Part shown: in pieces, positions 49 to 31,098 of the stretch | Layout of the letters: the number at the start of each line of letters is the position of its first letter | Position numbering within the stretch: position 1 is the first letter of the stretch | Virus genome (UHGV): UHGV-1321070 | Strand: one strand, 5' to 3' | From: a virus | DNA: 36,303 nucleotides | Notes under the pieces: generated by a model | Databases searched by the model: none | Told to the model about the DNA's origin: nothing | What the model saw: only the letters and a program-made list of their open reading frames with translations | Translations under genes and position numbers: made by a program

Positions 49-217
<169 letters not shown>

Positions 218-607
218 TTACTCTTTTTTCTCCGTATCTGCATCGGGTTCATCAGCAAATAGCTTGCCCTGCATCCGATCCAGTTCTTCTTTTCTTACCC
301 GCTTAACCACGCTGTAGACCCACTGAAGCGAAACACCAAATTTGCGGGCCAGTTCGTGGTGGTTGCGTCCGTTAAACTCCCTGAAGATTTCCCGGTCGCG
401 CTGACTGACCTTCCATACCATGCCCATCGGGAAATAAACGTTTTGCCCGCCCCAGACCTGCATCATTCGGTTCGCGACGGCCTGACCAATCTGGTCGGCA
501 ATTGCGGGCTCAATATCAATAATCTCGCGAACGGTCTCAGAGGTATGCTGTGCCAGTTCCACCAGGAGTTCCGGCCCTTTACTTCGAAACTGATTCAGGT
601 CGCTCAT
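218..607 (-). CDS. mor: Mor/C-family transcriptional activator (middle/late gene activator)
   Basis: 129 aa; pattern GGQNVYFP.G...RDREIFREFNGRN..ELARKFGVS...VY..VKRVR matches the conserved core of Mu Mor/C as I recall it; last gene of the early operon, as in Mu. Confidence 0.8.
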   Translation of the reverse strand: MSDLNQFRSKGPELLVELAQHTSETVREIIDIEPAIADQIGQAVANRMMQVWGGQNVYFPMGMVWKVSQRDREIFREFNGRNHHELARKFGVSLQWVYSVVKRVRKEELDRMQGKLFADEPDADTEKKE

Positions 608-1070
608 GTTTTACTCCCGCAGCTCTGCGCTGCCACTTCTTCAGTTTCTCAATAACACTACTTGCCTGTTCAGTATTGAGCCAGCGCAGGGCGCTGATGC
701 CCGTTTCCCGCTTGATCCACCGCGCTAATGCATTTTCTGAACGGTCACGAACAATGCCGGCAGCAGCCATTTCAAGCCATAGCGCACGGATTTTCCTGGA
801 CTGCGGATGGTTATCCAGCGGTAAACCGGAGCTGGCTTTTCCGGCAGGCTTAACGCGAAAGCCTTTCCTTTTCATGGATTCCAGCACGCAGTTTAGTTGT
901 GTGGTATCCATTCCTTTGGTTGAGGCTTTACCGGTCAGCCCCTGTAACATCTGGCGGTAGGTGTCTTCATCCATACCCAGTTCATTACGGGCAATATGAA
1001 TGAGCTGGATAAGACGTTGTTTAGTCATCATCGTTGCTCCTTTTACCTGCGCCACCGATATAATCGACAT
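579..1070 (-). CDS. gemA: GemA / Mu gp16-like regulatory protein
   Basis: 163 aa; motif LIQLIHIARNELGMDEDTYRQML...KASTKGMDTTQLN is typical of the Mu GemA (gp16) family; sits immediately upstream of mor as in Mu. Start codon uncertain (29-bp overlap with mor). Confidence 0.65.
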   Translation of the reverse strand: MSIISVAQVKGATMMTKQRLIQLIHIARNELGMDEDTYRQMLQGLTGKASTKGMDTTQLNCVLESMKRKGFRVKPAGKASSGLPLDNHPQSRKIRALWLEMAAAGIVRDRSENALARWIKRETGISALRWLNTEQASSVIEKLKKWQRRAAGVKHERPESVSK

Positions 1071-1236
1071 ATAAAGGAAGCGCCACAGGCCAGCACAGGA
1101 ACATCACCGACCAGCTAATCCAGTAGCCAGCACCACTGTAACGTGAATAAAACCCTGAACGGCGGTGCAGTTCAGCAGTACACCAACCGACAAAACAATA
1201 CCAGAACAGGGCACATACAACAGATTCAGCAGTCAT
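1021..1236 (-). CDS. Small hydrophobic protein (about 71 aa, two predicted TM helices)
   Basis: Trimmed from the 123-aa track ORF to the internal Met (MTAESVV...), which is preceded by a GGGGGG Shine-Dalgarno-like run; highly hydrophobic. Coding status uncertain. Confidence 0.3.
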   Translation of the reverse strand: MTAESVVCALFWYCFVGWCTAELHRRSGFYSRYSGAGYWISWSVMFLCWPVALPLYVDYIGGAGKRSNDDD

Positions 1237-1452
1237 TCTGAATATCCCCCCAACTGATATGAATATTACGGGCAGCAATGACAGGGTCGTTATTCCACCA
1301 TGCACCTGACATGTATTTTTCAACCTGTTCGCGTCCGGCAATAACACCAATTGTGATCCCCGGCCTGACGTTCTTAAAAAAGGCGCGGGCAAAAAGGTAT
1401 CTGGCAGATATTCGGCAGGCTTTTAATTTCCGGCTTTTACCTGATAGCGTAA

Positions 1453-2172
1453 TCATCTGGCCTCCAGTTTCTGTTGTTCCTGCCCACTGACCGGGCGGTG
1501 CAGTCTGACGTTCTGCCCTTCAAGAAACCCCGCATAGCGCGAGGCGTCGCCATTGCGGCTTCTTCCCGGTTTACGCGCTCTGGTGGTTTGCGTTTGCGGG
1601 TATTTATGTTCCAGCCACTGCTGCATCAGTTCACGTTCGTCATCGGTCAGGGCGAAGGACTGTATTTCACTGATAACGGCCAGCACCCAGCCTTCAGCAA
1701 ACTGGTCACCACGGCTGGTACGGGTGGCAGTTTTTATTCTTTTGTTCTGTGCGCTGATATATTGCTGACGCGCCTTTTTCAGCTGGCGGGCCAGCACTTC
1801 CCAGGTGTATGCAGCCAGTGCCGCACGTTCCCGGTTGCCGTAGAACCCCACAGACGGATGCGTGCCGGGGTGAATGATGGAGTTAACACCAAATACCTCG
1901 CGGATGATGTTCATCAGGCCCAGCATGTAGCGCGGTGGACGGAGACTGCCTGTCGGCCAGTAGTGACTGATGGTTTCATCAATATCACTCATAGCAATGT
2001 CGGAATGTGTGATGCCGTGAACATCCATCAGTTTACGGGCTCGGCGCAGTGCCAGAGCGGCCTCGTGCGGGTTGCCGGATGCGGCCAGCGCCAGCAACTT
2101 TTTCAGTTTCTCAATGTGTTTATTCTGGTCTGTCATTGTTCTGTATCTCCGGTATTTTTCTGCCGTTTCCAT
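1453..2172 (-). CDS. Conserved phage early protein (DUF2786-like N-terminus)
   Basis: 239 aa; N-terminal KHIEKLKKLLALAASGNPHEAALALRRARKLM resembles the DUF2786 signature found in many prophage early regions. Confidence 0.5.
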   Translation of the reverse strand: METAEKYRRYRTMTDQNKHIEKLKKLLALAASGNPHEAALALRRARKLMDVHGITHSDIAMSDIDETISHYWPTGSLRPPRYMLGLMNIIREVFGVNSIIHPGTHPSVGFYGNRERAALAAYTWEVLARQLKKARQQYISAQNKRIKTATRTSRGDQFAEGWVLAVISEIQSFALTDDERELMQQWLEHKYPQTQTTRARKPGRSRNGDASRYAGFLEGQNVRLHRPVSGQEQQKLEAR

Positions 2173-2348
2173 GCCCGGACAGCGTCGGACAGCTCTTTCA
2201 GGCTGTATGCTGCTTTAAGCTTTTCCCATAACCACTGTGTTGTTATGTGCATCAGCAGGGCAGCCAGGGCTGCCCCCGCACTGAGGCATGTCGCCAGGCC
2301 AGTAAGAATCAGTATCCATGCGGTGATTTCCCTGAGTATGTCAGCCAT
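2133..2348 (-). CDS. Small membrane protein (71 aa)
   Basis: One strongly hydrophobic segment (WILILTGLATCLSAGAALAALLM); tightly packed in the early operon. Confidence 0.35.
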   Translation of the reverse strand: MADILREITAWILILTGLATCLSAGAALAALLMHITTQWLWEKLKAAYSLKELSDAVRAWKRQKNTGDTEQ

Positions 2349-2362
2349 TGAATGCCTCCCGG

Positions 2363-2659
2363 TTACTCGTTCGTGTAAATCACGCCCAGTCGTGCAGCCA
2401 GACGTTCCAGTTTTTTCTGTTTGTGGAAGTCAATCAGCCGGTCCATCCCCTGAAGGCGCAATTGCTCTGTCATGATTTCCACGTCTGCCAGCTCTGCCGC
2501 GAGGTCGCTTTCGCTGCCCTGTCCGTTCAGATTGCGGGCAGCACTGGCCGCCAGTTCAGCGGCCTCTTCTGTCAGTTTCAGGGCCTGTGCGTCCGGCCCG
2601 AAACGCTGCAGGGCCAGACGGTAGAGGGCGGTGCGGGTGAGTATGGTGTTCCGTGTCAT
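2363..2659 (-). CDS. MazG-like nucleotide pyrophosphohydrolase (small all-alpha NTP-PPase)
   Basis: 98 aa with the paired acidic motifs EEAAEL and ELADVEIM characteristic of MazG/HisE-type pyrophosphohydrolases. Confidence 0.55.
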   Translation of the reverse strand: MTRNTILTRTALYRLALQRFGPDAQALKLTEEAAELAASAARNLNGQGSESDLAAELADVEIMTEQLRLQGMDRLIDFHKQKKLERLAARLGVIYTNE

Positions 2660-2668
2660 GCCGCGCCC

Positions 2669-2941
2669 TCAGTGCTTCCGGCTGACGGTGATGTGCAGGC
2701 CGCCTTCTGCAGTGGTTTCCATCCGGTACGGCACCTCATGCGCTGCCGTGTGGGTTAGTGTGTTCACCAGTACCTGCAGGGCAGCCGCCTTTCCGTTGGT
2801 CGCCACAATGGCTTGAGCGGTCATGCTGATTAGCGCCGTCAGGACGTGCTTCACATCGGTGAGGTCGCGGCATTCACACTCGTTGACATAGTGTTCAACA
2901 AGGGTTCGGGTGCGCTGTCGTGCTTCCTGTGGGGTAATCAT
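2669..2941 (-). CDS. Hypothetical early protein (90 aa)
   Basis: ORF in the early operon, stop overlapping the next start; no recognisable motif. Confidence 0.4.
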   Translation of the reverse strand: MITPQEARQRTRTLVEHYVNECECRDLTDVKHVLTALISMTAQAIVATNGKAAALQVLVNTLTHTAAHEVPYRMETTAEGGLHITVSRKH

Positions 2942-3132
2942 TGCGAGTCCTCCCTGTCAGGGCGGGAGAATTCCATGACGGGCACGTCTGCCGAAAAATG
3001 CTGGCTGCAGTACGGGCAGACCAGGGTGACGCGTACCGCAGGGATGTGGTATTTACCGGACATCACGGCGATGGCGCTGTGAAAACGCAGGGCTGTTATA
3101 TCCCTCTCGCACTGAATACATTTAAATATCAT
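2938..3132 (-). CDS. Zinc-ribbon protein (CxxC...CxxC), 64 aa
   Basis: Cys pairs at C5/C8 and C39/C42 (KCIQCER ... VCPYCSQ); similar in size and Cys pattern to small phage zinc fingers such as Mu Com, but no adjacent mom-like gene. Confidence 0.4.
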   Translation of the reverse strand: MIFKCIQCERDITALRFHSAIAVMSGKYHIPAVRVTLVCPYCSQHFSADVPVMEFSRPDREDSQ

Positions 3133-3229
3133 GATTTAATTCTCCTCTGTTTCCGGCGTGCAGAAGCCCGCGGCGCTGACGTCGGAATAAAAAAGAAAAT
3201 GTTTTTATTAAATAATTAACGTGGTGTGT

Positions 3230-3760
3230 TTACTGCACATCCTGCTCAAAAGGAATTATTGAAAAATCCTCAATGTCGCTTTTAATGGAAATACCGGGAA
3301 TATTTTTCACGGCCTCTTTTTCATTCAGGATAGCGTCTTTATTTATTTCCTCTTTTACACGAATAAAGCGCTCAAGCCCCAGACGTCTCAGTAATTCAAT
3401 AACATTATCCGCCCCACGGATACTGACTGATGGCGGACGGTTTCGCCACTGCACCTCGCCGGTGGTGAGGTTAGCGAACTTCACCTTCCCGTTGCCGGTC
3501 AGTTCATCACGGTGTGCCTCACACCATGTCTGAATACCGGACTGCAGTTCGGCCATGCGTTTTTTCAGGCTCTCGGTGAGCGGGGCATAACGTGCGGTGA
3601 TATCGCCAATGGCGTCATTCATTTCTGTTTCAGCCCTGACCAGTTCACGTTGTGCGTCACCGAGTAGTCTGATTCCCTCAATGACCTCTTCACGTGTCCC
3701 CGGCACCCAGAGTGCTGCTGCGGCCTTGATACGTTTTGCACCTTTTGTACTTTTTGCCAT
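3230..3760 (-). CDS. gam: Host-nuclease inhibitor Gam (DNA end-binding, Ku-like)
   Basis: 176 aa; strong similarity along the length to Mu Gam as I recall it (ETEMNDAI...WCEA.RDELT..GKVK.ANL.TG.V.WR.RPPSVSIRG...RLGL.RFIR.K.EINK.AIL...DFSIIPFEQ). Confidence 0.9.
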   Translation of the reverse strand: MAKSTKGAKRIKAAAALWVPGTREEVIEGIRLLGDAQRELVRAETEMNDAIGDITARYAPLTESLKKRMAELQSGIQTWCEAHRDELTGNGKVKFANLTTGEVQWRNRPPSVSIRGADNVIELLRRLGLERFIRVKEEINKDAILNEKEAVKNIPGISIKSDIEDFSIIPFEQDVQ

Positions 3761-3787
3761 TTTTTATGATTTCTCCAGTTGTGCTGA

Positions 3788-4057
3788 TTACCACAAAGAT
3801 TCCGGCCACACGACGCGACAGCCGTGCAGTTCGAAAACGCCCTGACGGAAATATCCCCTGTGGTCATGTCCGGTATACAGATAACAGGCCTTTCCCTGCT
3901 CAAGCATGCGCATGCAATGCGCACTCCGGGAAACGCGGATGACAGGTTTGTTACCCCTGATGGTGATGCTTTGTACATCCGTGTTCGTCGCCTTAAGCGC
4001 CATAATGGCTGACTGCACTTTGCTGATTTGCTGGTTGATACCTGTGGTGGATTTCAT
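3788..4057 (-). CDS. Hypothetical early protein (89 aa), position of kil-type genes
   Basis: ORF between B-like ATPase and gam; no motif recognised. Function inferred from position only. Confidence 0.35.
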   Translation of the reverse strand: MKSTTGINQQISKVQSAIMALKATNTDVQSITIRGNKPVIRVSRSAHCMRMLEQGKACYLYTGHDHRGYFRQGVFELHGCRVVWPESLW

Positions 4058-4059
4058 TA

Positions 4060-5226
4060 TTAAACCCCTTTGACAACGTCAGCGTTGACCTGTGGAACCC
4101 CGATTTCAGCGGCCAGATTCATGGCGGCTATTACCAGGTTACTGACGGCCAGCGGATACAGCAGGCTGACCATATTTTTACGGTGACTTCCCGGATTGCT
4201 CAGGCGGGCACGTATGGCATCCACTGCACCGGCGTCCATAATGTCCGTCAGCTGTTTACCGGCCCGTTGCAGTTTGAACGTCAGAAATTCTTCAAGGTTA
4301 TTGTCCAGAGGCAGAAGTTCGACCACCTCACAGCGCTGAACGACTTCACGGACTTCCATATTGCGTTCAGACAGTTTTGTCGCCAGTTCCGGCTGGCCAA
4401 TCAGCACGATGGACAGCAGTTTTTTGAAACCGGACTCCAGCTCAAAAAAGCGTTTGAGGTGTTTCAGTGTCGGAATGGGCAGACTGTGGGCCTCCTCAAT
4501 CACCAGAACGTGGCTGAACCCCGCCTGGCTGCTGTCTTTCAGGACGCGATGCAACTGGCGAAAACGGGCGTCCTGACTGCGTCTGATGCTTTCCAGTGGT
4601 GCGATGGTACTGATAATGGCTTCGGCAATAGCTGCTGCCTTCAGGGTTTTCCCTTTCACATCGTTGTCTTCCATAGCGATGATGTATGGCTCGATAACAA
4701 TTACCGGCGCATTCTCGCGGTTGATACGTTCAGTCAGGTCGCGGCGCAGCGTGGATTTACCCGCACCGGACTCACCGATGACGGCCATAAACCCACCATG
4801 ACGGGCTGTCTGGTACAGCGCCTCACGCACGTAGCGAATGTCCGGGGTGGTGAACACATCATCAGAACCCTGCATGGCTTCGTCGGCGAACGGGTCACGG
4901 AAAAGACCAAACGCTTTTTTGGTTGCTGGAAATAACACCTGTTTTTTGAGTAACATATTCTCTTCCTCACTGAGGCTCGTTTTATCTGTGGTACCCGCTG
5001 TACGGGGCGTGGCCGCGCCCTGTACAGCATCAAAACTCTTCGTTGTATCAATCCCCTGACTTTCCAGCCAGGACGCAAGACGCCGGCGCACTTCTCCGGG
5101 GCTGGTGCGGGGCCACGCGTTATGATTCACAATCTGGGCCAGCGTGGCCTCAGAAACATCGACAGCTCTCGCCACCACCGCCTGTGGAATACGGGCCTCT
5201 TTCAGTTGCTGCTTCAGTACCAGCAT
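4060..5226 (-). CDS. MuB-like AAA+ ATPase (transposition target-DNA activator) with N-terminal HTH
   Basis: Walker A GESGAGKST, Walker B-like HVLVIEEAH; start set at the Met preceded by GAGGAGGG (track ORF starts 39 nt upstream); immediately downstream of the transposase as in Mu A-B. Confidence 0.7.
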   Translation of the reverse strand: MLVLKQQLKEARIPQAVVARAVDVSEATLAQIVNHNAWPRTSPGEVRRRLASWLESQGIDTTKSFDAVQGAATPRTAGTTDKTSLSEEENMLLKKQVLFPATKKAFGLFRDPFADEAMQGSDDVFTTPDIRYVREALYQTARHGGFMAVIGESGAGKSTLRRDLTERINRENAPVIVIEPYIIAMEDNDVKGKTLKAAAIAEAIISTIAPLESIRRSQDARFRQLHRVLKDSSQAGFSHVLVIEEAHSLPIPTLKHLKRFFELESGFKKLLSIVLIGQPELATKLSERNMEVREVVQRCEVVELLPLDNNLEEFLTFKLQRAGKQLTDIMDAGAVDAIRARLSNPGSHRKNMVSLLYPLAVSNLVIAAMNLAAEIGVPQVNADVVKGV

Positions 5227-5236
5227 GTTTCCCTCC

Positions 5237-7006
5237 TCAGTTGCCGTTAACAATGCTGATAACACTGCTGCGGGCCGGTGTGGTCAGCGTGGCCATGACT
5301 TCATCCAGTGCGGCTTCCGGTACGCCGTCCGGGTACTGTGCCGTTAACTGGCGGTAATGTTCCGGCGTCCAGGTAAGGCCGTCGGCGCTGAACTTATCGC
5401 GCAGGGCTTTCGCGGCCTCCACATGAGTCATGGGACGTTGTTCAGTGCGCGGCCCGCGTACGTCAGAGGCCTGACCACGCTTCGGCATATAGGCCGGAAG
5501 TGTGGTGTCGTCGATATGTTTATACGGGTCAAGCCGCCCGCCGAACGGCAGCGCCTTCGCCTTGCGTGCGGCGGCTGCATCTGCGGCGTTGTCTGTACCG
5601 GTAACCAGCGCTTCGGTTTCTTTTGCCGCCATCTGTGCCGGGGTTTCCGGCAGGGCTTTGTAACTTTCGCCAAATACCGCCGCGCCTTCAGCAAAGCCAA
5701 ACTCGTTCTTTCTGACCTCTTCGACCAGGAAGAACGTCTCGTGGCCGTCCTCACCGGTCAGAACCACCTGTGCCACATCGCTGCGCCATGGGTTACGGGT
5801 AATCATCAGTTTTTCACCAACCAGTACGCCCGGTACCGTTGATACGTCAAATTCAGTGCCCCGGAACGAGACACGAAGTTTTGGCGTGACTTTGCGGAGT
5901 TCTGGTGCCGCCACAGCCAGTTCACGACATACCTCAACGGAAGGCGCTTTTTTCAGCTGCTCAGCAGTAATCTTCAGCCAGATATCCGTGCGGGTTTTAC
6001 CGTGGCGGCTGTGAACAGCCGTGGCGTTAAAGTGGCTGCGCCATTTCGCGGCCAGCGCGTTGAGTTCTTCCAGACTGTGAACCGGCCGGAACTTCAGACC
6101 CGGCTCCAGCTTGCGTTCGATAATGTCACGCGCCTTTTCCACCTGTCCGGTGGCGCGGGCGTTATGCGGCTTGTGCGCTATCAGGTCGATGCCCAGTGAG
6201 CGGCACATGTTTTTCGTCATACCCGCGGTGTTTGCCGAGCCGGGGTCGAGATAGAGTATTTTCGGCACGCCGTGCAGCACGTCTGCGCCGCCACGCTCCT
6301 GCATGGCGTTGATAAGCACAGAACACAGGTTCTCACCTGATTCCGCGCCCGTCACATACTCAACGTAAATCCAGCCGCTGGCATGGTCGGTAATCTCGTA
6401 ACTCCACACGCGGTCACTGGCGATACGGGCAAGGTTAGCGGGCTTGTTCTTGTAGAACTTCGCGCTGTCCATCACCTGCAGCCCTTTATGTCCATTGCTC
6501 AGGTAGTAAAGCGTGCAGAGTGAGGCGTCAATCTGCCAGACATGATTGGGATGCAGACTGGCCACTTCGGTATGTGGTGCAGGGGCATCCAGTTGTTCCG
6601 GGTGCAGGCCATAGTTACGCAGAGCACGGCTGATGGCATCTTCAGACAACGGGAAAAACTCACTGGTGGTTTCATCTGTTCTGCCTGCGGTGATAAAGCC
6701 GTTAGCCCGCAGGGTTTCCACTGCATCTGCGATGGAATAGAGACGCTTACCGTTCTTGCGGGTGGCCTCACGCAGTGTGGCAGATATCAGCGCGGCTTCG
6801 TCGCGGGTCAGGGCGCTGCGCCCGGCATCGGCGCGTTTTTTGCGTTTATCAGTCACAGAGACCTCCTTCAGCCTGCGCAGCAGAGTGGCGCGGGACATGC
6901 CAAGTTCAGCACAGGCAGCGTCGTATATTGCACCGCGTTTACCATGCCCCGCGTCACGTGCCGCGCGGGCGACATAAACCAGTCGTTCAGTCAGGGCAGC
7001 ATTCAT
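5237..7006 (-). CDS. MuA-like DDE transposase
   Basis: 589 aa; N-terminal HTH (GMSRATLLRRLKE), central integrase-core-like region (HVWQID ... D/E-rich), Mu-transposase-like C-terminal region; GGAGG RBS 7 nt upstream of the ATG. Confidence 0.8.
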   Translation of the reverse strand: MNAALTERLVYVARAARDAGHGKRGAIYDAACAELGMSRATLLRRLKEVSVTDKRKKRADAGRSALTRDEAALISATLREATRKNGKRLYSIADAVETLRANGFITAGRTDETTSEFFPLSEDAISRALRNYGLHPEQLDAPAPHTEVASLHPNHVWQIDASLCTLYYLSNGHKGLQVMDSAKFYKNKPANLARIASDRVWSYEITDHASGWIYVEYVTGAESGENLCSVLINAMQERGGADVLHGVPKILYLDPGSANTAGMTKNMCRSLGIDLIAHKPHNARATGQVEKARDIIERKLEPGLKFRPVHSLEELNALAAKWRSHFNATAVHSRHGKTRTDIWLKITAEQLKKAPSVEVCRELAVAAPELRKVTPKLRVSFRGTEFDVSTVPGVLVGEKLMITRNPWRSDVAQVVLTGEDGHETFFLVEEVRKNEFGFAEGAAVFGESYKALPETPAQMAAKETEALVTGTDNAADAAAARKAKALPFGGRLDPYKHIDDTTLPAYMPKRGQASDVRGPRTEQRPMTHVEAAKALRDKFSADGLTWTPEHYRQLTAQYPDGVPEAALDEVMATLTTPARSSVISIVNGN

Positions 7007-7009
7007 TGG

Positions 7010-7924
7010 TTATGCCTCCAGCCCGTTAATCTGTGGCGTCGGCTCAGTCAGCCATGAAGGCGCTGCATTGCCTGTTGGCTCGTCCGGCAGGTCAAATGTG
7101 GAGCGCAGGCTACGCGCTGTGCTTTCCAGTTGACAGACCAGGCCTGCCATGAAGTCTCTGGGGGTATCAATCATGTTTTCAGCACAATATGCGCACAGCG
7201 TCTCAAAAGCGCTGGACAGTCGGACGGCGATAGCAGATTCCGCCTCAACCGCTAATGCTGTTACTTCCGCCCGCAGCTTCTTAACCTCCTCATCAGGCTC
7301 AGGCGGCTGAATACGGGATTTCTTCTCCAGTCTGGTGGAGAGTGAATCTATTTTTTCATTTTTGTCGGCGAGTACGCGCTGTTGTGCTGCGTTGGTTTCG
7401 CGCGCTTCGCGCAGGGCCTGACGCAATTCACGTACTGACATGCGATCAACGTCGTCAAGCGTCAGGCCGGCAACTGTGCCGCCGTCGGCCAATTCATCAA
7501 GTTCTTCATTATCCAGAACCATCAGGTCGTACAGTTTGGCTTTCCCCAAAACGCTCAACGTTGAGCGTTTTGTTGGCTCATCACCTTCTCCCAAAAACTT
7601 CATACTGGCTTGCATCATGCGGCGAGCAACTTGTGGTGCAAGTCCGAGTTCATTTTCTAAAATGTTTGTAAAATCACCGTGTGGCTCATTTTCTTTTAAG
7701 ATGATCAGCCGCTTACCCGCTTCCAGCATAGATTCAGCACTCTGCGCCATATAAAAACGTGCTTCGTGAACAATGCGATCACGTTCATAAGGCAGTCCAT
7801 CACCAAACTGCTGCATAATTTCCATGCGATGCTGTGTCATAGCGTTCAAATTGACATTGATGTTATCTGACAGCGGAACCTCAACATTCAGTTCAGTGTT
7901 AACGGGTGATTTGGTGCGTCCCAT
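7010..7924 (-). CDS. Conserved early protein of unknown function (304 aa)
   Basis: Coiled-coil-rich acidic protein; stop abuts the transposase start; occupies the position between the regulators and the transposase. Confidence 0.45.
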   Translation of the reverse strand: MGRTKSPVNTELNVEVPLSDNINVNLNAMTQHRMEIMQQFGDGLPYERDRIVHEARFYMAQSAESMLEAGKRLIILKENEPHGDFTNILENELGLAPQVARRMMQASMKFLGEGDEPTKRSTLSVLGKAKLYDLMVLDNEELDELADGGTVAGLTLDDVDRMSVRELRQALREARETNAAQQRVLADKNEKIDSLSTRLEKKSRIQPPEPDEEVKKLRAEVTALAVEAESAIAVRLSSAFETLCAYCAENMIDTPRDFMAGLVCQLESTARSLRSTFDLPDEPTGNAAPSWLTEPTPQINGLEA

Positions 7925-7934
7925 TGATTACTCC

Positions 7935-8306
7935 TTACAAACGACTACCTGAAATAACTCGTTGGTTGATTTCGTTAATACGATCCTGTGCACGCGCCAT
8001 CTCGTGACTGTGAGCCATGGCGATCTGTAGTAACTGGATTCCCGGTGCGAAACGTCCGTTCTCTAATTTCATGGCCAGTCCCTCTTCAATAAGGGTATTA
8101 AGTGCTCGATTGATATTCGCCGGGGACTCCCCCAGGGCTGATGCCAGTTCACCGTTAGAAACACCGTTCAGAGCATGACCGCGTAGAGCTTTGAGTACAC
8201 GTAGGATGCGGGTCCCAGAACTGGAAATATTTACTTTACTCATGTCACATTTCCATTTTTGCAATATGTGATAACCTGTTGCATATGTGGAAAATTTATG
8301 CCGCAT
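7935..8306 (-). CDS. Winged-helix DNA-binding protein (MarR/IclR-like HTH)
   Basis: 123 aa; segment GTRILRVLKALRGHALNGVSNGELASALGESPANINRALNTLIEEGL is a typical wHTH. Overlaps the ner-like gene by 11 bp; an internal start (MSKVNISS) is possible. Confidence 0.45.
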   Translation of the reverse strand: MRHKFSTYATGYHILQKWKCDMSKVNISSSGTRILRVLKALRGHALNGVSNGELASALGESPANINRALNTLIEEGLAMKLENGRFAPGIQLLQIAMAHSHEMARAQDRINEINQRVISGSRL

Positions 8307-8484
8307 TTGACGTGGGTTTTAATCCCAGTTTTACGGCAATTTCATGGGCTTTGCCGTAACGAGCTTTGGTCTGTCCATTGAGAACACGATAGACCTCATT
8401 GCGGCTGTAGCCGTGTTCTTCGGCCCAGCGGGTAAACGTGATACCACGCTGACGGAAGAGATTTTTAACTTGTTCGGAAGTCAT
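8296..8484 (-). CDS. Ner/Cro-like small DNA-binding regulator (first gene of early operon)
   Basis: 62 aa HTH protein (RWAEEHGYSRNEVYRVLNG) at the head of the leftward early operon, divergent from the repressor gene: the position Ner occupies in Mu. Confidence 0.55.
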   Translation of the reverse strand: MTSEQVKNLFRQRGITFTRWAEEHGYSRNEVYRVLNGQTKARYGKAHEIAVKLGLKPTSNAA

Positions 8485-8534
8485 TGTTGTCTCCTTTGTT
8501 GATGCAATGATGTTTGTTTTATATGTGATAGATT

Positions 8535-8996
8535 ATGAGAACTATTGTTCTCATTGTCAATGAGGTTTATGTGAATTTTGATTCTCTTTGCGCGTCGCGG
8601 TTCAAAGCTGAGCGTTCGCGGTTATCACTCAAGCAGGCTGAAGTAGCAGCCCTTTGTGGCGTTTCAAGAGAAATGTGGGGGAAATATGAACGAGGGGTTG
8701 CTGTTCCCGGAGGTGAGTTACTTGCAGCCTTTGCAAGAATTGGGGCCAATGTACAGTTCATTCTTACCGGGGAGTCATCAGGTATAACTTTATCACGTGA
8801 TGAAATGGAGTTACTGCAGCACTACCGGCAGGCACCATTACAGGTCAAAGGTTCAGTTTTGTCGGCCTTGACTACTGGCTCCTCCAGAGAACGGGCGGAA
8901 CAGGTTATTCATGGAGATGTTCTGGGGAATGTTATCAAAGGTAACGTAACCATAGGAACAGGTGGAATAATGAACAAAAATACCAAGAGAAGATGA
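8535..8996 (+). CDS. XRE-family HTH repressor (candidate immunity repressor c)
   Basis: HTH LSLKQAEVAALCGVSREMWGKYERG; divergent from the early operon. The true start may be the GTG at 8571, which follows a GAGG RBS and would place the palindrome upstream of the gene. Confidence 0.65.
   Translation: MRTIVLIVNEVYVNFDSLCASRFKAERSRLSLKQAEVAALCGVSREMWGKYERGVAVPGGELLAAFARIGANVQFILTGESSGITLSRDEMELLQHYRQAPLQVKGSVLSALTTGSSRERAEQVIHGDVLGNVIKGNVTIGTGGIMNKNTKRR
8537..8552. promoter_or_regulatory. Candidate operator: perfect palindrome GAGAACTATTGTTCTC
   Basis: 6-bp arms GAGAAC/GTTCTC around TATT in the divergent ner-like / repressor control region. Confidence 0.45.
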
Positions 8997-9979
8997 GTAA
9001 AGAGAAGCAAACAGTTAACGGGGATGTGGGTAACGTTGTCAGCGGTGATGTTACCATTCATAACTATTCTGCTGACATACTTCCTTCGGCCCAGCAACCA
9101 ATTTCGTTGCTGCAAAAACGCGATTTACACAGATTGATGGATGAATTGGTTGATCTGGGGGAAAGTAAGCGCGAGCTATGGATGACGATCCACACGAAAC
9201 TTAATACCAAAACAGTTAATGAAATGACTGCGGCTGATTATCATGGTGCGGTTGAGATCCTTCAGAGATATGCACAACAGATCCAGAATATGAAGGACTG
9301 TAATCTTCTGGTCAGCAAAATAATGGCGCTTACTGACCCTGGGTATCGTCTTGACCGTGACAGATACTGTCTGAAGCATTTCGGTACAACCCATCTTAAA
9401 GGCCTAGACAAAGAGCAGTTGCAGGCTGTGTTTGGTTATTTTGATGATCTGCTGAATATTCGTGATGAGAGTAAAACTCTATCACCTCCATCGGAAAGCG
9501 GTGCAAAATCAGTCGCAACTGTACCAACCAGAAGCCGGAAGCCTCATGTAGTAGTGTTGGGGGGAGTGTTAGTTCTTGTAGCAATATTTTTCGTGGGAAT
9601 GATTGTGTTCGCTGGTAAATGGGGAAATGCCAAAGCAGTAGCTTCTACTGAAACCAGCGTTTTTAACATTAAAACCAACGATAAAATAATAGAAGATTCC
9701 ATCCCCGCACTGCGCAGCATGTTTCCAGGGTTAAATAAGTACTCAGATGATTTCCATTCGGTTTCAAGCTACAAGCAAAAAACGGGCTGGCATACCCTTA
9801 AATTTACTGTATCAGCAAAGGCATCCGTCCCCGAAAATTATAGTGTTAAGGGCAAGGTTTGTTACATTAACATAAGCCCTGATGGTAGTTATGCTCGGGT
9901 TTTGACTGCTCCATGTCGTTCACTGCTACTTGATCAGCAAAGCACTCCTGACAGTAAATACCGTTTTATTCTTAAATAG
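8993..9979 (+). CDS. Single-pass membrane protein of unknown function (328 aa), translationally coupled to the repressor
   Basis: Start ATG overlaps the repressor stop (ATGA). One TM helix (VVVLGGVLVLVAIFFVGMIVFAG) separates a ~185-aa N-terminal domain from a ~120-aa C-terminal domain; visibly AT-richer than the backbone. Confidence 0.55.
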   Translation: MSKEKQTVNGDVGNVVSGDVTIHNYSADILPSAQQPISLLQKRDLHRLMDELVDLGESKRELWMTIHTKLNTKTVNEMTAADYHGAVEILQRYAQQIQNMKDCNLLVSKIMALTDPGYRLDRDRYCLKHFGTTHLKGLDKEQLQAVFGYFDDLLNIRDESKTLSPPSESGAKSVATVPTRSRKPHVVVLGGVLVLVAIFFVGMIVFAGKWGNAKAVASTETSVFNIKTNDKIIEDSIPALRSMFPGLNKYSDDFHSVSSYKQKTGWHTLKFTVSAKASVPENYSVKGKVCYINISPDGSYARVLTAPCRSLLLDQQSTPDSKYRFILK

Positions 9980-10060
9980 AAAATAACAGCTGAATTACCA
10001 TGGGATCAGAAAAAAGACAAAGGCGGCATCATGCTGCGTTCTGAAATTTTAATGTAAAAG

Positions 10061-10651
10061 GTGATGAACATGGCAGGGATTCAGGTTATCGCAGGAAGTT
10101 TTCCTAAAGGGTGGGCAAGCATGGGGTTCGGTACCATCGTGTTTGCCAAAAAACCAAAACAAGGCTTTCCTGAAAATATTGTATTAAATCTGAAAGAAGA
10201 GCTTTTATCGATTGAACTTGCGGATAGTGAAGAGGAAAGCCGTATAGGTAAGGCGGCAGGCGCAGGTTTGCTTGGTGGATTAATCTTTGGTGGTGCAGGG
10301 TTGGTCATTGGAGGTTTGCTTGGTGCGGCGGACAAGACGAAAAAAACTATCACTTTTAAGGCAATGTTTACGGGAAATAGGTTACTTCTGGCTAAAACAG
10401 ATTCAAAAACTTTTGTAAAACTTCAGTCAATTGCTGCTGATAATGCCCATAACGCATCTGTAATCAACATGAAGCAAACTAACAGGGGCGATGTTTCTTC
10501 TCGTAAACAACTAACAGAAAATCCACAGCAGCAAGACTTACCTGCGCCCGCTACAACAGTAAAAATGACTGCCAAAGATAAGTTAGAATCGGCTCTTGGG
10601 CTGGGAATCATCGTTATAGCTGTTTGGGCAATAATACACTTCTTTTTTTAG
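10061..10651 (+). CDS. Glycine-zipper membrane protein of unknown function (196 aa)
   Basis: GKAAGAGLLGGLIFGGAGLVIGGLLGAA glycine-zipper segment plus a C-terminal TM anchor (LGLGIIVIAVWAIIHFFF); same strand as the repressor; followed by a terminator. Confidence 0.5.
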   Translation: MMNMAGIQVIAGSFPKGWASMGFGTIVFAKKPKQGFPENIVLNLKEELLSIELADSEEESRIGKAAGAGLLGGLIFGGAGLVIGGLLGAADKTKKTITFKAMFTGNRLLLAKTDSKTFVKLQSIAADNAHNASVINMKQTNRGDVSSRKQLTENPQQQDLPAPATTVKMTAKDKLESALGLGIIVIAVWAIIHFFF

Positions 10652-10653
10652 TG

Positions 10654-10678
10654 CAGCCCTTCAGGGCTGTTTCTGTTC
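10654..10678 (+). terminator. Rho-independent terminator-like hairpin between convergent genes
   Basis: CAGCCC-TTCA-GGGCTG stem-loop followed by TTTCTGTT; sits 3 nt after the TAG of the 196-aa gene and just past the stop of the convergent P-loop gene. Confidence 0.55.
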
Positions 10679-10688
10679 AGGAGGTATC

Positions 10689-11165
10689 TTAAGGATTATC
10701 CGGGGCGTTTTCCTGTTTGCCGTACTTCGGAGACGAACAACATTCTGTTGGCTGACCGGTGAGTTTACGTAACTCCTTCATGAGCAGCTCCTGATCGTAA
10801 ACTGTCATCAGTGCCGCAATGGTGGCATGCAGTGCATCGGGCAGTATCCAGGGTTGCCGGCCCGTGGGGCATATAACATCCAGCAGCTCATTCGTCCGAC
10901 AGATACGCTCCTCGCCGTATGACAACAGGCCCTGTCCCGTGTATTCCTCCAGCCTGATCACTGTGCCACCCCGTGGCTTCTGCCAGGTCGTCAGATCTTC
11001 GCCATTCATACGGCGCTCATTCTCCACGTCAGCAGCATCGACAATGACGCTGTTTCCGAGTTCCTGTTTCACCATCTCTTCTATCCGCGCCAGTACGTAA
11101 CTTTTACCGCTGCCCACAGGACCGGACACAGTGACAGTGATGACCGGATTCAGTGTGTGCGTCAT
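10689..11165 (-). CDS. Small P-loop NTPase of unknown function (158 aa)
   Basis: Walker A GPVGSGKS near the N-terminus and an acidic stretch (VIVDAADVE) that could be Walker B; convergent with the two preceding genes, divergent from the lysis operon. Confidence 0.5.
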   Translation of the reverse strand: MTHTLNPVITVTVSGPVGSGKSYVLARIEEMVKQELGNSVIVDAADVENERRMNGEDLTTWQKPRGGTVIRLEEYTGQGLLSYGEERICRTNELLDVICPTGRQPWILPDALHATIAALMTVYDQELLMKELRKLTGQPTECCSSPKYGKQENAPDNP

Positions 11166-11223
11166 ATCGTATTCTCCTCTGTGAATAATTCATCGTTTAT
11201 CCTGCACATCCCGTATCCCCGGC

Positions 11224-11246
11224 TCTCTTAACGCGCTTTAAAATCC
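11224..11246 (+). promoter_or_regulatory. Conserved late-promoter motif, copy 1 (upstream of lysis operon)
   Basis: CTCTCTTAACGCGCTTTAAAATC, matching the consensus CTYCTTAA-N4-CTTTAAWATC also found at 24608 and 30698; about 50 bp upstream of the 11296 start. Confidence 0.5.
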
Positions 11247-11295
11247 TTCGCGCCCTGTATTTGTGATGCTGTCTCCACCAGATAAGGAGACACAC

Positions 11296-11646
11296 ATGAA
11301 AAACCTGAAAAAATTCATTCCCCCTGTTAAAAAACCTCGCCTCAGCGGCTGGCTGCTGACCTCAGTGCTGTTGCTGGGCACCATCGCTCTGGTCTCACCA
11401 CAGCAGCTGCCTGTTGTGATCTACAAGCTGGCACTCATCACGCTGGCAGCAGTGCTGGGTTACTGGCTTGACCGTTCGCTCTTCCCCAAAGCCCGTCCCG
11501 GTCAGTACCTGAAACATGACGACAGGCTGATGGCTGAAGGGCGTTTCCCGGTACAGACCGGCCTTCACCTGGTGTTTTCTGCTGCGTTAATCCGCCGTGC
11601 ACTGATTGTTGCAGCGGTCTGCCTGGCTGTTGCGATGGGGCTTTAA
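11296..11646 (+). CDS. Putative holin / lysis membrane protein
   Basis: Start moved to the ATG preceded by AAGGAGA; about 116 aa with three hydrophobic helices; immediately precedes the endolysin. Confidence 0.45.
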   Translation: MKNLKKFIPPVKKPRLSGWLLTSVLLLGTIALVSPQQLPVVIYKLALITLAAVLGYWLDRSLFPKARPGQYLKHDDRLMAEGRFPVQTGLHLVFSAALIRRALIVAAVCLAVAMGL

Positions 11647-11648
11647 TC

Positions 11649-12389
11649 ATGAACTGGCCGCAGATCACCTGGATTGTATGCATGTCCCTGAAACTGGCTT
11701 TCGAAGCCTTTCGGGTCTTCATCAGAACCGAACGCCTGTCAGTCCGCGCCGGGACCTTTCTGGTTCATATGGCATGGGTATTCTTTGTCGCAATGTTGCT
11801 CTGGTGTGGCGGCTTTTTTAGCCAGGCATGCGCAGCACAACCTCCGCAGGCTGCGCTGCAGTATCGCGATGATGTGATCCGTAATGCCCGGCTTGAATGG
11901 GGACTGTCTGCGCCGGTGGCCGATTTCGCCGCGCAACTGCATCAGGAAAGCGGCTGGCGACCTGATGCGATCTCGCCGGCTGGCGCTCAGGGACTGGCGC
12001 AGTTCATGCCTGCCACTGCCGACTGGATAAGCCAGTTGATACCGATGCTGAGCAGTCGTGAGCCGTTTAATCCGGCATGGGCTATCCGGGCGCTGGTCAG
12101 CTATGACCGCTGGCTGTGGCAGCGTGTCAGCGCCGCCAGTGACTGCGAGCGTATGGCCATGACACTGTCGGGCTATAACGGTGGTCTGGGCTGGGTACAA
12201 CGGGACAGGCGGCTTGCATCACAGAAAGGTCTGGACAGCACCCGCTGGTTCGGACATGTCGCCACGGTGAATGCCGGACGCAATGCGGCCAGCTGGCGGG
12301 AGAACCGCCATTATCCGCAGCGCATCCTGCGCGAACTGGCACCGCGATATCTCACATGGGGAGGCAGCAGTTGTGTGGCATCTGGTTAA
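11649..12389 (+). CDS. Endolysin, lytic transglycosylase (SLT domain)
   Basis: SLT catalytic region LHQESGWRPDAISPAGAQGLAQFMPATADW with the conserved E-S and AQGL.Q motifs; N-terminal hydrophobic segment. Confidence 0.75.
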   Translation: MNWPQITWIVCMSLKLAFEAFRVFIRTERLSVRAGTFLVHMAWVFFVAMLLWCGGFFSQACAAQPPQAALQYRDDVIRNARLEWGLSAPVADFAAQLHQESGWRPDAISPAGAQGLAQFMPATADWISQLIPMLSSREPFNPAWAIRALVSYDRWLWQRVSAASDCERMAMTLSGYNGGLGWVQRDRRLASQKGLDSTRWFGHVATVNAGRNAASWRENRHYPQRILRELAPRYLTWGGSSCVASG

Positions 12390-13023: not shown

Positions 13024-13346
13024 CACTGCAGGTTGAATTCTGGACGGTGGTGAGTTTTCTGCTCACCTTCATGGGGTTTGTGGGAGGGCTCGCCAAATGG
13101 TTGTTCAGTAAAACAGAAGAACGCCAGGCGGCACGATTCGCCTCCCTTGAACAGGCCCTGCAACAATCCGCCTCCAACTGGGGCGAGCTGGAAAAAGAAT
13201 TTATGCGATTTAAAGCGGATTTACCGCTGAATTATGTCCGTCGAGAGGATTATATCCGTGGCCAGACAGTCATTGAGGCCAAACTGGACGCGCTTTATAA
13301 CAAACTGGAAGTGGTACAGCAGTACCGCAATACCGGAGGTCAATAA
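13020..13346 (+). CDS. Small membrane protein (108 aa), possible lysis accessory
   Basis: N-terminal TM helix (FWTVVSFLLTFMGFVGGLAKWLF) then a helical soluble region; start overlaps the Rz stop. Confidence 0.4.
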   Translation: MTLQVEFWTVVSFLLTFMGFVGGLAKWLFSKTEERQAARFASLEQALQQSASNWGELEKEFMRFKADLPLNYVRREDYIRGQTVIEAKLDALYNKLEVVQQYRNTGGQ

Positions 13347-13657
13347 TGGTCGATATTACCCGGGTACGCCGCGAATCCCTGCGCTGGAGTCTGCTGGTTG
13401 CCCTGAACAAGACCCGCCCTTACACCGCCAGCGAGACGCTGCTGCTGGATGTGTCCCGTGCCATCTACCCGGACACCACACCGCTGGAACTGCGCCGCGA
13501 ACTGGATTATCTGGCTGACCGTAAAATGGTTGATCTGGAGAAAAAACCTTCTGGCGACTGGTTTGCTGACCTGACCCGCCTCGGCGTAGACCTGGTGGAA
13601 TACACCGTGGAATGTGGTCCGGGTATTGCCCGCCCGGAAAAGTACTGGAGTGAATAA
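13346..13657 (+). CDS. Hypothetical protein (103 aa)
   Basis: Compact ORF translationally coupled to its neighbours in the late operon. Confidence 0.4.
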   Translation: MVDITRVRRESLRWSLLVALNKTRPYTASETLLLDVSRAIYPDTTPLELRRELDYLADRKMVDLEKKPSGDWFADLTRLGVDLVEYTVECGPGIARPEKYWSE

Positions 13658-14202
13658 TGGCCAGACGCAGCACAATAGAAAAGCTGCCGGAAGATGTGCG
13701 CCGCTGGCTTGAACGGGCGCTGACTGAATCCGGCTTCAGCGGGTATAACGAGCTGGAGTCCCTGCTGCGTGAGCGGGGGTACGTCATCAGCAAATCCGCT
13801 ATCCATCGCTATGGACAGAAGATTGAGCGCCGCTATGGTGCTATCCGTGCGGCAACAGAAGCGGCCCGCATGCTGACCGAAGGCGCAGCAGACGATCAGG
13901 ATGCGCGTTCGGAGGCTGTGATAGCCCTTATTCAGACCGAGCTGTTCGAGAGTATTGTCCAGTTGCAGGAGGCGGAAGAAGGCGAAGTCGATCCTAAAGA
14001 ACGCGTGGCCCTGCTGTCGAAGGTGGCGAAGAATGTGGCTACGCTGTCCCGCGCGTCCGTCAACCTCAAAAAGTTCCAGTCTGAAGTACGGGCCAGAGCG
14101 CAGCAGGCAGCCAGCAACGCCGAGAAAATTGCCCGTAAGGGGGGACTGTCAAGCGACGCAGTACAGGCGCTTCGTCGCGAGATTCTGGGGATTGCCACAT
14201 GA
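13657..14202 (+). CDS. Mu gp27-like protein (putative small terminase subunit)
   Basis: 181 aa, N-terminal HTH-like region, immediately upstream of the large terminase; position and size match Mu gp27. Confidence 0.55.
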   Translation: MARRSTIEKLPEDVRRWLERALTESGFSGYNELESLLRERGYVISKSAIHRYGQKIERRYGAIRAATEAARMLTEGAADDQDARSEAVIALIQTELFESIVQLQEAEEGEVDPKERVALLSKVAKNVATLSRASVNLKKFQSEVRARAQQAASNAEKIARKGGLSSDAVQALRREILGIAT

Positions 14203-18553: not shown

Positions 18554-18600
18554 GTTTTCTCTCTTCAGGCGGGTGATTTATCATTGCCAGCGAATGAGGG

Positions 18601-18630
18601 GCTGTATTACCTTTATAAAGGCTTTACAGC
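18601..18630. promoter_or_regulatory. Imperfect 30-bp palindrome in the G-I intergenic gap
   Basis: GCTGTAttaCCTTTATAAAGGcttTACAGC: outer 6-bp arms plus a perfect 12-bp central palindrome CCTTTATAAAGG (18610..18621) in a 214-bp non-coding gap. Confidence 0.4.
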
Positions 18631-18767
18631 CTCTGTTTTATAACCGCCTCCGGTTCACCGCATTGCTTTCCCTGTCCTTCTCCCCTGATGTTTTCTAAAG
18701 CAGATTAAAATCGCCGGGCCTGCATTTCTCACAAACTGTCTCCGACAACATAACGCGGGACAGCAAA

Positions 18768-24584: not shown

Positions 24585-24607
24585 CATCACAGGGGCTCTG
24601 GCCCCTT

Positions 24608-24629
24608 CTTCTTAATCTCCTTTAATATC
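24608..24629 (+). promoter_or_regulatory. Conserved late-promoter motif, copy 2 (upstream of tail chaperone / tape measure operon)
   Basis: CTTCTTAATCTCCTTTAATATC; CATACT -10-like hexamer 19 bp downstream (24649..24654). Confidence 0.55.
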
Positions 24630-24681
24630 CGTCACGCGCTTCTCCCGACATACTGCCCTGAACTTACACAGGAGCACAATC

Positions 24682-25017
24682 ATGTCACAGACCCCATCCG
24701 ATACTTTTAAATTGTCTTATCCCTTCACCACTGCTGCAGGCACCAGAATTGAGCAGGTTGAACTGAAACGCCTGACGGTAAAAGACCTGAAGCAGGTGCG
24801 CAAAATCAGCAAAAACCCGGCAGACTGGGACGAACCGCTGATTGCCCGCAGTACTGGTCTTCTCCCGGAAGATCTCGACAATATGGATCTGGCTGATTAC
24901 CTGCAGTTACAGAAACGATTTCAGCTCATCACGGGGATGGGTGAGAGCAACCAGGGCGCTGACGCAGGCGCAGGGGCTGCTGGCGAGATGGTTCCGGTTT
25001 CAGCCGGGGGAGATTGA
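24682..25017 (+). CDS. Tail assembly chaperone (upstream frame)
   Basis: 111 aa acidic protein between tube and tape measure; overlapped by a +1-frame ORF (24842..25099). Confidence 0.55.
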   Translation: MSQTPSDTFKLSYPFTTAAGTRIEQVELKRLTVKDLKQVRKISKNPADWDEPLIARSTGLLPEDLDNMDLADYLQLQKRFQLITGMGESNQGADAGAGAAGEMVPVSAGGD

Positions 25018-30697: not shown

Positions 30698-30719
30698 CTT
30701 CTTAAACGCCTTTAATATC
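30698..30719 (+). promoter_or_regulatory. Conserved late-promoter motif, copy 3 (upstream of baseplate/fibre operon)
   Basis: CTTCTTAAACGCCTTTAATATC; AATACT -10-like hexamer 19 bp downstream (30739..30744), the same spacing as copy 2. Confidence 0.55.
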
Positions 30720-30750
30720 AGCGTTCCCGCACGGGGGCAATACTGCCCCC

Positions 30751-31098
30751 ATGAAAACGACCTCAGTATTCTGGCAACCAGCCCTGCAGGCTCCCGGCGA
30801 AATTGTCCGGGGGCTGGATGATATCCGGCAGGCGATTCAAATTATCCTGCGGACTCCCCGCGGCAGCGACCCGCATCGCCCGGAGTTCGGCAGCAATCTG
30901 CATCTTTATATCGACTGGCCTGTAGACCGGGCCATTCCGCATGTGGTGCGCGAATCCGTCGATGCCATCCGGCGCTGGGAGCCCCGCTGCCAGCTTATGT
31001 CAGTTAAACCCGCCGTCGACGGCGAACATCTTACGCTCCGGGTGAGCTGGAAAGGCTCAGACGGACAGACCCGGACTCAGGAACTGCTATGGCGCTGA
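30751..31098 (+). CDS. Baseplate wedge protein (P2 gpW / T4 gp25-like)
   Basis: 115 aa with the GPW/gp25 signature region (IRQAIQIILRTPRGSDPHRPEFGSNLHLYIDWPVD). Confidence 0.7.
   Translation: MKTTSVFWQPALQAPGEIVRGLDDIRQAIQIILRTPRGSDPHRPEFGSNLHLYIDWPVDRAIPHVVRESVDAIRRWEPRCQLMSVKPAVDGEHLTLRVSWKGSDGQTRTQELLWR

Follow-up and report, generated by a model that had tools for sequence, protein, structure and literature searches.

Predicted Mor boxes at the late operons of a BcepMu-type Escherichia coli prophage with a leftward early operon and a single Mor activator

The transposable phage BcepMu has been described by Lavigne et al. as having a two-cluster genome with a lysogeny control region at the strand switch and a Tn552-type transposase (PMC2771037), an account that cites Summer et al. 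2004 for BcepMu and the genus Bcepmuvirus. In the sequence record (NC_005882 / AY539836), gp01, gp02 (GemA), gp08 (ATPase), gp09 (transposase), gp10, gp12 and gp16, a helix-turn-helix (HTH) protein, are on the bottom strand, while the gp17 repressor, a membrane protein, a holin-SLT-Rz cassette, a Mu-like head and a P2-like tail are on the top strand. The same arrangement is found in UHGV virus genome UHGV-1321070, a stretch of 36,303 nucleotides that is referred to here, at its full length, as the window. An earlier note on this DNA had pointed to a similar layout in BcepMu-like prophages. The comparison is correct, as gp01 is a Mor/C family member at the left end of BcepMu, with the early genes on the bottom strand and the repressor and late genes on the top strand. 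The novelty implied for this layout does not hold up, since it is the standard published architecture of the BcepMu group; an inverted early module with a single Mor is already described and ordinary for BcepMu-like phages. In Mu itself, Mor binds two 5-bp inverted repeats around a G/C-rich hexanucleotide, a 16-bp element centred at -43.5 of the promoter Pm (Ma and Howe, PMC4390567). The Mor site of Pm spans -51 to -36, in a numbering set by the primer JM1 (-87 to -48; PMC4390567). Promoters dependent on Mor or on its paralogue C have a -10 hexamer, no -35 element and a dyad at -43.5 (PMC2582627).

Each of four late operons in the window (lysis, head, tail and baseplate) is preceded by a 16-bp dyad of the form nnTAA-N6-TTAAW, followed after 22 nt by a -10-like hexamer. 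The predicted lysis promoter, P-lys, stands before the holin gene at 11227-11270 on the plus strand, with the box CTTAA-CGCGCT-TTAAA at 11227-11242 and the hexamer GATGCT at 11265-11270. The predicted P-I, for the head protease/scaffold operon, occupies 18694-18737 (+), with the box TCTAA-AGCAGA-TTAAA at 18694-18709 and the hexamer CAAACT. A predicted promoter for the tail-assembly and tape-measure genes is located at 24611-24654 (+; box CTTAA-TCTCCT-TTAAT, 24611-24626; hexamer CATACT), and one for the baseplate operon (gpW-J-I-H) at 30701-30744 (+; box CTTAA-ACGCCT-TTAAT, 30701-30716; hexamer AATACT). A scan for the sigma-70 consensus returns no promoter call at any of the four late sites, so that, judged from sequence alone, each of them combines a 5-6-5 dyad, 22 nt to a -10-like hexamer and no sigma-70 call, the features looked for in a target promoter of this activator. 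Terminator-like hairpins precede two of the boxes, at 10653-10670, after the repressor unit, and at 24591-24606, abutting the tail box.

The resemblance to Mu is specific to Pm. On the Mu sequence, the Mor site of Pm reads AGTAA-AGCCGG-TTAAT, with 22 nt leading to TATCCT at -13 to -8, and the boxes of the window share its half-sites, its spacer length and its 22-nt spacing. The P-I box of BcepMu, CGTAA-AGCCGA-TTAAA, is identical to the Mu Mor site at 13/16 positions. A pattern derived from the window, and not trained on Mu, matches the Mu genome (36.7 kb) only once, at 9175-9216, which is Pm (expected number of matches 0.10), and matches D108 once, at the place equivalent to Pm. The C-dependent late promoters were not matched when this pattern was run over the whole Mu genome. 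Because the boxes show the geometry of the Mor box of Mu Pm, direct activation is well supported in silico: we infer that Mor binds the four boxes and that these are the late promoters, and we put the probability that the single Mor of this element activates its late promoters directly at roughly 0.7.

Conservation among relatives points the same way. An 18-bp motif upstream of the holin gene, I, the tail-assembly genes and W is kept at orthologous places in Klebsiella phage KP12, BcepMu, Ralstonia YO107_2 and Pseudomonas Komp_PAO1_1, while the sequence around it has diverged; the P-lys box in particular is retained at its orthologous position in KP12, BcepMu and YO107_2. In the window, the pattern TAA-N6-TTAAW-N22-NANNNT is matched at these four sites and nowhere else, always on the plus strand, as against 0.00 expected in shuffles. 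With a matrix built from the non-enteric relatives, the site at 18694 ranks first (22.8, as against a shuffle maximum of 18.1), and those at 11227 and 30701 fall within the top four.

Several observations weigh against direct activation by Mor. The four sites of the window were themselves the source of the search pattern, which makes the match count circular when taken by itself. The matrix from non-enteric relatives gives the site at 24611 a score of just 11.5, and P-I alone beats every shuffle. Box matches of similar score occur inside coding sequence, at 35706 in the invertase gene and at 13209 in orf108. The first of these (35706-35723) encodes the conserved LKRALKCLKEG of the invertase, the second spans 13209-13226, and a -10-like hexamer at the proper distance is missing from both. 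Both are probably chance or coding-driven, and they show the limits of the specificity of the motif. The strict pattern matches BcepMu at 2/4 places, and JBD25, a B3-like phage with the inverted layout and a single Mor, has no credible box match; hence not every phage of inverted layout carries the box. The recognition helix of the window Mor is not obviously nearer to that of Mu Mor than to that of Mu C. Finally, an unrelated early regulator, such as the IclR-type winged-helix protein or the DUF2786 protein of the early operon, could act as an intermediate.

If Mor acts directly, as in the overall reading that we hold to be quite probable, the following course of events would be expected. The candidate early promoter Pe (8560-8532) would drive a leftward early transcript of ~8.3 kb that finishes ~160 bp from the left end, and the position of mor as the last gene of this transcript would provide a built-in delay. 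The repressor would be transcribed divergently, rightward, together with two cargo genes, in a unit stopping at 10653-10670. Mor would then bind the four 16-bp dyads, centred near -43.5 by analogy with Mu Pm, at promoters that have a -10-like hexamer and no -35, and would activate the operons for lysis, head, tail and baseplate with no middle operon or C step. The resulting cascade would have two tiers (early to late), as against the succession of early, Mor, C and late in Mu, which has three.

The main rival to direct activation is a hidden middle tier, in which Mor activates a non-homologous regulator and it is this regulator that recognises the conserved late-promoter motif. Candidates for such a role do exist, namely the IclR-type winged-helix protein (7935-8306), the DUF2786/DUF7168 protein (1453-2172) and orf64, which are DNA-binding or zinc-ribbon-like and uncharacterised. 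Moreover, the tail genes are P2-like, and P2 employs a small zinc-finger activator, Ogr. However, all of the candidate regulators are encoded upstream of mor in the early operon, and none has a Mor box or a gap before it, while the motif before the late operons agrees with the Mor site mapped by experiment at Mu Pm in its half-sites, in the length of its spacer and in how far it stands from the -10. As for orf64, a Cys4 spacing is present, but its Pfam matches are weak, sub-threshold zinc-ribbon matches and none is to Ogr/Delta, and its identification as an Ogr/Delta-like activator was rejected. No P2 late element of the TGT-N12-ACA type was noticed in the four gaps, although no formal scan for it was made. 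Because the candidates lack a box or promoter gap of their own and the boxes match the mapped Mor site, a hidden middle tier is judged unlikely.

Some further observations concern the boxes and motifs resembling them. The baseplate -10 hexamer, AATACT, ends 6 nt before the ATG of W (window 30739-30753), which places the predicted start of transcription at the W ATG itself; on this prediction the baseplate transcript would have little or no leader. KP12, BcepMu and Komp_PAO1_1 show the same succession of -10 hexamer, 6-7 nt and ATG before W. The lysis box comes close to a palindrome. On the minus strand (11242-11225), CAGGAT stands 22 nt beyond it, with a GAGGAG ribosome-binding site and the start of orf158 at 11165 further on, so that this one box (11225-11244) may, by its sequence, fire both ways and also drive the cargo gene orf158. 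A palindrome or hairpin at 18597-18635, with the core CCTTTATAAAGG (18610-18621), occupies the gap between G and I, ~80 bp upstream of the P-I box. KP12, BcepMu, Ralstonia YO107_2 and Pseudomonas Komp_PAO1_1 all retain the palindrome core TTTATAAAGGCTT, and on the minus strand the palindrome amounts to a near Mor box (TGTAA-AGCCTT-TATAA), close to the centre of the genome. Mu has a strong gyrase site between G and I, near its genome centre. A motif resembling the Mor box also occurs in the cargo slot of Escherichia phage PhiKM (30843-30860, minus strand) and of KP12 (24958-24975), upstream of a Dam methylase gene. The PhiKM copy has CATCAT 22 nt further on, and the arrangement calls to mind Mu mom, whose expression is late and depends on an activator.

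The activator to which this role is assigned is encoded at 218-607 on the minus strand as the last gene of the early operon. It matches Pfam PF08765 with E=1.3e-43 and 147.8 bits (cut-off 24.9) over profile positions 1-107, and its alignment with Mu Mor and C shows the segment WGGQNVYFP (a GG-x-x-Y-x-P linker) and a C-terminal HTH block. It is 54% identical to BcepMu gp01 and about 32% to the Mor proteins of Mu and D108. For relatives of this gene, six-frame stop-to-stop segments of at least 25 aa were searched by phmmer with Mu Mor, Mu C, BcepMu gp01 and the window Mor, and by hmmsearch with a four-sequence hidden Markov model, using --max and accepting E up to 10. The sole match was 218-607 itself, the next best hit (E ~0.8) being the HTH of the gene at the Ner position, and a second Mor/C gene in the window was accordingly rejected. 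The annotation of a prophage that is 100% identical across 55-12000, made by the Prokaryotic Genome Annotation Pipeline (PGAP), likewise holds one Mor gene. The earlier note's claim that no second paralogue is present therefore stands, and its deduction that the sole activator must work on the late promoters without an intermediate is supported by the four Pm-type boxes.

A single activator is not peculiar to this element. In a tblastn survey for Mor homologues, 87 of 50,697 phage records matched, 60 of which were listed, and 14 extra matching places were counted across the 87. Among the 60 listed, every record with two places belongs to Mu's own group (Mu, D108, SfMu, Mu_3F6, PhiR68_1 and Yersinia Mu-likes), while the BcepMu-like, Pseudomonas, Pasteurella, Vibrio, Stenotrophomonas and Faecalibacterium records have one Mor place each. 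Since two-place records, among those listed, are confined to Mu's group, one activator is the common state and the Mor/C pair of Mu is the exception. This bears on a second rival, namely that an equivalent of Mu C was lost or degraded and the prophage is defective for late transcription. Prophages often decay, and the window does lack a C gene, but the six-frame search left no Mor/C remnant, one Mor match was found in each BcepMu-type record examined, including the plaque-forming or induced BcepMu, phiE255, PhiKM and KP12, and the structural genes are all intact and collinear. Loss of a C gene is thus highly improbable.

The element that carries these genes is a single intact transposon spanning 55-36213, with termini TGAT...ATCA and a target duplication of 6 bp. 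The two copies of the duplicated hexamer, GCCAGT, are found at 49-54, in host DNA, and at 36214-36219. The left end (55-100, +) opens with TGATTAG and carries GAGATAAATG-type repeats, which are inverted counterparts of the repeats at the right end and constitute putative transposase-binding sites. The right end (36170-36213, +) has two CATTTATCGC repeats 23 bp apart and terminates in ...GCGCATCA. Matches to PhiKM and to prophages at other chromosomal sites begin at 54-55. The flanks joined through one GCCAGT (138 bp) are contiguous in 5417/5426 complete E. coli genomes, and the insertion site is an unannotated intergenic place in that species. The first 12 kb of the element recur in 128 complete E. 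coli genomes, starting at base 54-55 and at varied chromosomal positions; to illustrate, the copy in strain M9682-C1 sits inside gspL, and IAI39 is another carrier genome. About 2% of complete E. coli genomes carry the prophage. The structural genes are all intact and collinear with those of relatives. The window is a complete BcepMu-type (Bcepmuvirus-like) transposable prophage that transposed into an intergenic site of E. coli.

The earlier note had itself allowed that the window might be an assembly chimera of two elements. That the inverted layout is an artefact of this kind, or a misassembled inversion of a Mu-oriented phage, has next to no probability: a dip in GC content across 8-11 kb is all that was found in its favour, and that low-GC stretch is a known variable cargo slot, differing among relatives. 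A chimera is contradicted by the precise ends, the 6-bp duplication and an empty site uninterrupted in 5417 genomes. The junctions, moreover, recur in 128 complete genomes that were assembled independently and in the PhiKM and KP12 records, and BcepMu, phiE255-type phages and Komp_PAO1_1 have their genes in the same order and orientation.

The early operon runs leftward from a strong, near-consensus candidate sigma-70 promoter at 8560-8532 through to mor (607-218), in the order ner-like HTH gene, two extra genes, rve transposase, B-like AAA+ ATPase, gam, gemA and mor. Comparison with the Mu annotation confirms that the immunity and early module points the opposite way from that of Mu. The earlier note was also right that the whole operon is leftward and ends at the left terminus, the mor stop being 163 bp from position 55. 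The order that it gave, from ner-like gene through A, B, gam and gemA to mor, is as described except for the two additional genes between the ner-like gene and A. The candidate early promoter, Pe (8532-8560, -), consists of TTGACA, 17 nt and CATAAT, with 11/12 matches, and overlaps the start of the repressor gene. Downstream of it, the first early gene (8296-8484, -) encodes a 62-aa HTH protein at the Ner/Cro position (HTH_31, E=4e-5; PHROG 925, E=1e-32), which also matches PHROG 769, that of Mu Ner, weakly (E=1.4e-4). The two genes with no counterpart in Mu follow, an IclR-type winged-helix regulator (7935-8306, -) and a DUF3102 protein (7010-7924, -), which are orthologues of BcepMu gp12 and gp10, respectively. 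The DDE (rve) transposase, the functional counterpart of Mu A, is encoded at 5237-7006 (-; rve E=9.8e-9; PHROG 310, the Mu A family), and the B-like AAA+ transposition ATPase, of the ExeA family, at 4060-5265 (-; AAA_22 E=3.8e-20; PHROG 296, the Mu B family). The host-nuclease inhibitor gene gam (3230-3760, -; PF07352 E=1e-40) precedes a run of small early genes (1021-3132, -) whose calls match PGAP, including orf64, with a Cys4 zinc-ribbon-like protein (2938-3132, -), and the DUF2786/DUF7168 gene (1453-2172, -). The gemA homologue is at 579-1070 (-; PF06252 E=1.3e-40).

The relationship of these proteins to those of Mu is uneven. True homology to the Mu proteins holds for Gam, GemA and Mor (phmmer E-values of 1.8e-65, 1.8e-23 and 2.8e-13, respectively). 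For A, B, the ner-like protein and the repressor, queried against Mu A, B, Ner and c, no phmmer or tblastn match was obtained at E<1. Pairwise homology of these four with Mu was therefore rejected, A and B sharing PHROG profile families alone. Gam is 61.5% identical to the Gam of Mu and D108 and has no counterpart in BcepMu or KP12. The presence of a Mu-type gam within a BcepMu-type early operon suggests mosaic exchange between both phage groups in enterobacteria. A stable hairpin lies just 3' of the mor stop (150-205, -), before the left-end repeats, as a possible terminator of the early operon. The RNA fold of 140-225 (-) has -29.2 kcal/mol and z = -4.3, with a weak U tail, and a simple scan for intrinsic terminators after mor made no call. 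Such a hairpin may halt early transcription before it reaches host DNA.

Divergent from the early operon, a repressor of the Cro/CI type with HTH_31 and HTH_3 matches is encoded at 8535-8996 (+). It is followed by a low-GC cargo region (8993-11165; GC 0.43-0.47, as against 0.55-0.60 elsewhere). This region lies inside the span 218-11646 to which the earlier note had assigned the layout, and belongs neither to the early nor to the late genes. The start of orf328, which encodes a membrane protein, overlaps the repressor stop, and orf328 and orf196, both on the plus strand, end at the terminator at 10653-10670; the two are likely co-transcribed with the repressor in lysogens. A third cargo gene, orf158 (10689-11165, -), encodes a small P-loop protein. 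All three fall in PHROGs of unknown function. PADLOC gave no match of note for the cargo genes, and their identification as a defence system was rejected. PhiKM and KP12 differ in this slot, having a Dam methylase and other genes and lacking the set of repressor, orf328 and orf196. The repressor and the lysis, head and tail genes run rightward on the plus strand, as the earlier note had it, but two genes to the right of the repressor, orf158 and an alternative tail-fibre fragment at 35018-35491, are on the minus strand.

The first late gene encodes a holin (11296-11646, +; PF13272 E=1.5e-41). Its ATG at 11296, which is also the start chosen by PGAP, suits the predicted transcription start better than the alternative GTG at 11263. 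An SLT endolysin (11649-12389, +) follows, and Mu gp27 (13657-14202, +) precedes the head and tail genes, whose names are those given by PGAP. Two features of the tail region vary. The first is an invertible tail-fibre segment, 33877-36135 with the adjoining invertase, whose inverted arms (33877-34105 and 35271-35499) are 229 nt long and 96% complementary. Between the arms lie a gene for tail-fibre assembly and the alternative fibre fragment, which has a Collar domain (that at 35018-35491), and the adjoining serine invertase is 76% identical to Mu Gin. In M9682-C1 the fibre genes are arranged differently. The second is the tape-measure gene (25175-27865), which has 2691 nt as against 2952 nt in the near-identical M9682-C1 prophage, with a sequencing gap in PhiKM. 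This difference is a length polymorphism in the tail-length ruler.

The discovery value of the element as such is small, in that its organisation is textbook BcepMu-like and the prophage is already in public records. What is gained is a clean annotation of the exact ends, the target duplication, Pe, the repressor unit and four predicted late promoters, together with a testable two-tier Mor cascade that could help to predict induction timing and late-gene control in a common E. coli prophage. A full-text search of the open-access literature for the motif string returned nothing relevant, although an earlier description of these promoters may exist. As far as that literature shows, the in-silico regulon of Pm-type Mor boxes is the sole element that is mildly new. 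The two-tier picture also suggests an origin for the Mor-then-C cascade of Mu. Tentatively, and at a little under even odds, we propose that the Pm-type Mor box is the shared late-promoter signal of many transposable phages with a single activator, and that the C tier of Mu is a lineage-specific duplication that later acquired a new box. The set proposed, as part of the same joint suggestion, to share the box would comprise BcepMu-like phages of Escherichia, Klebsiella, Burkholderia, Ralstonia and Pseudomonas as well as Mu-oriented Pasteurella phages.

Comparison with known systems places the window as follows. Like Mu and D108, the element is transposable and has the early order of Ner-type regulator, transposase, ATPase, gam, gemA and mor. 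Homologues of gam (61.5% identical), gemA, mor and gin (76%) are present, as are Mu-like terminase, portal, F and G genes, and the Mor-box architecture of Pm is shared. In Mu, however, the early operon runs rightward from the left end beside a leftward c repressor, opposite to the module of the window, and two Mor/C paralogues, mor and C, are split by a middle operon where the window has one gene. The late promoters of Mu have C boxes, which the Mor-box pattern leaves unmatched, and its lysis and tail modules differ. The marks of Muvirus, which are this orientation, the two paralogues and similarity to Mu A, B, Ner and c, are thus lacking from the window.

Two other phages combine these features differently. 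JBD25 (NC_027992), a B3-like siphophage of Pseudomonas, resembles the window in its inverted early module: its only mor gene stands leftmost on the bottom strand, and behind it come gemA, a DUF2786 gene, the ATPase, the rve transposase and an HTH gene of the BcepMu gp16 family. The tail module of JBD25, however, is that of a siphovirus, and the pattern applied here finds no Pm-type Mor box in this phage. Pasteurella phage AFS-2018a (MH238466) has a single Mor match (45% identical), a P2-like tail and, ahead of the lysis, head-protease, tail-assembly and baseplate operons, Mor boxes free of mismatches. It differs in having a Mu-oriented early operon with a Mu-type transposase arrangement, and its ORF12, annotated as a 'transcriptional regulator' gene, is directly downstream of mor.

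The closer likeness is to Bcepmuvirus, whose two-cluster genome, Tn552/IS1604-type rve transposase with an ExeA-like ATPase, head and tail collinearity and transposon ends are all found in the window. Its proteins are collinear with those of BcepMu at 33-77% identity, and for the Mu-like head and P2-like tail genes (gp27-gp52) tblastn gives matches in the same order at 31-77%. Identity is 54% for Mor, 59% for the ATPase (gp08) and 68% for the transposase (gp09), the last two over full length, and 45% for the gp16 homologue, 38.5% for the repressor (gp17) and 77% for the sheath. The ends of BcepMu, with TGA...TCA termini and GCGCGATAWAT repeats, resemble those of the window, and BcepMu likewise has a single Mor/C gene and the late-promoter motif at the same places. 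The window differs in having a Mu-type gam, a Gin-like invertase with its invertible tail-fibre segment and a different cargo, whereas BcepMu has SSB, HU and DUF3164 genes and an acyltransferase and is reported to be without an inversion system (PMC2771037). Pseudomonas Komp_PAO1_1 also has a leftward early module ending in mor. The nearest records include PhiKM (PQ738613, Bcepmuvirus), at 96-98% nucleotide identity, and Phi06_2974 B; across the backbone, KP12 stands at about 86-89% and the E. coli prophages of the 128 complete genomes at 96-100%. PhiKM, KP12 and these prophages differ from the window in tape-measure length and in the tail-fibre segment, and share with it the gene order, the single mor and the four Mor boxes.

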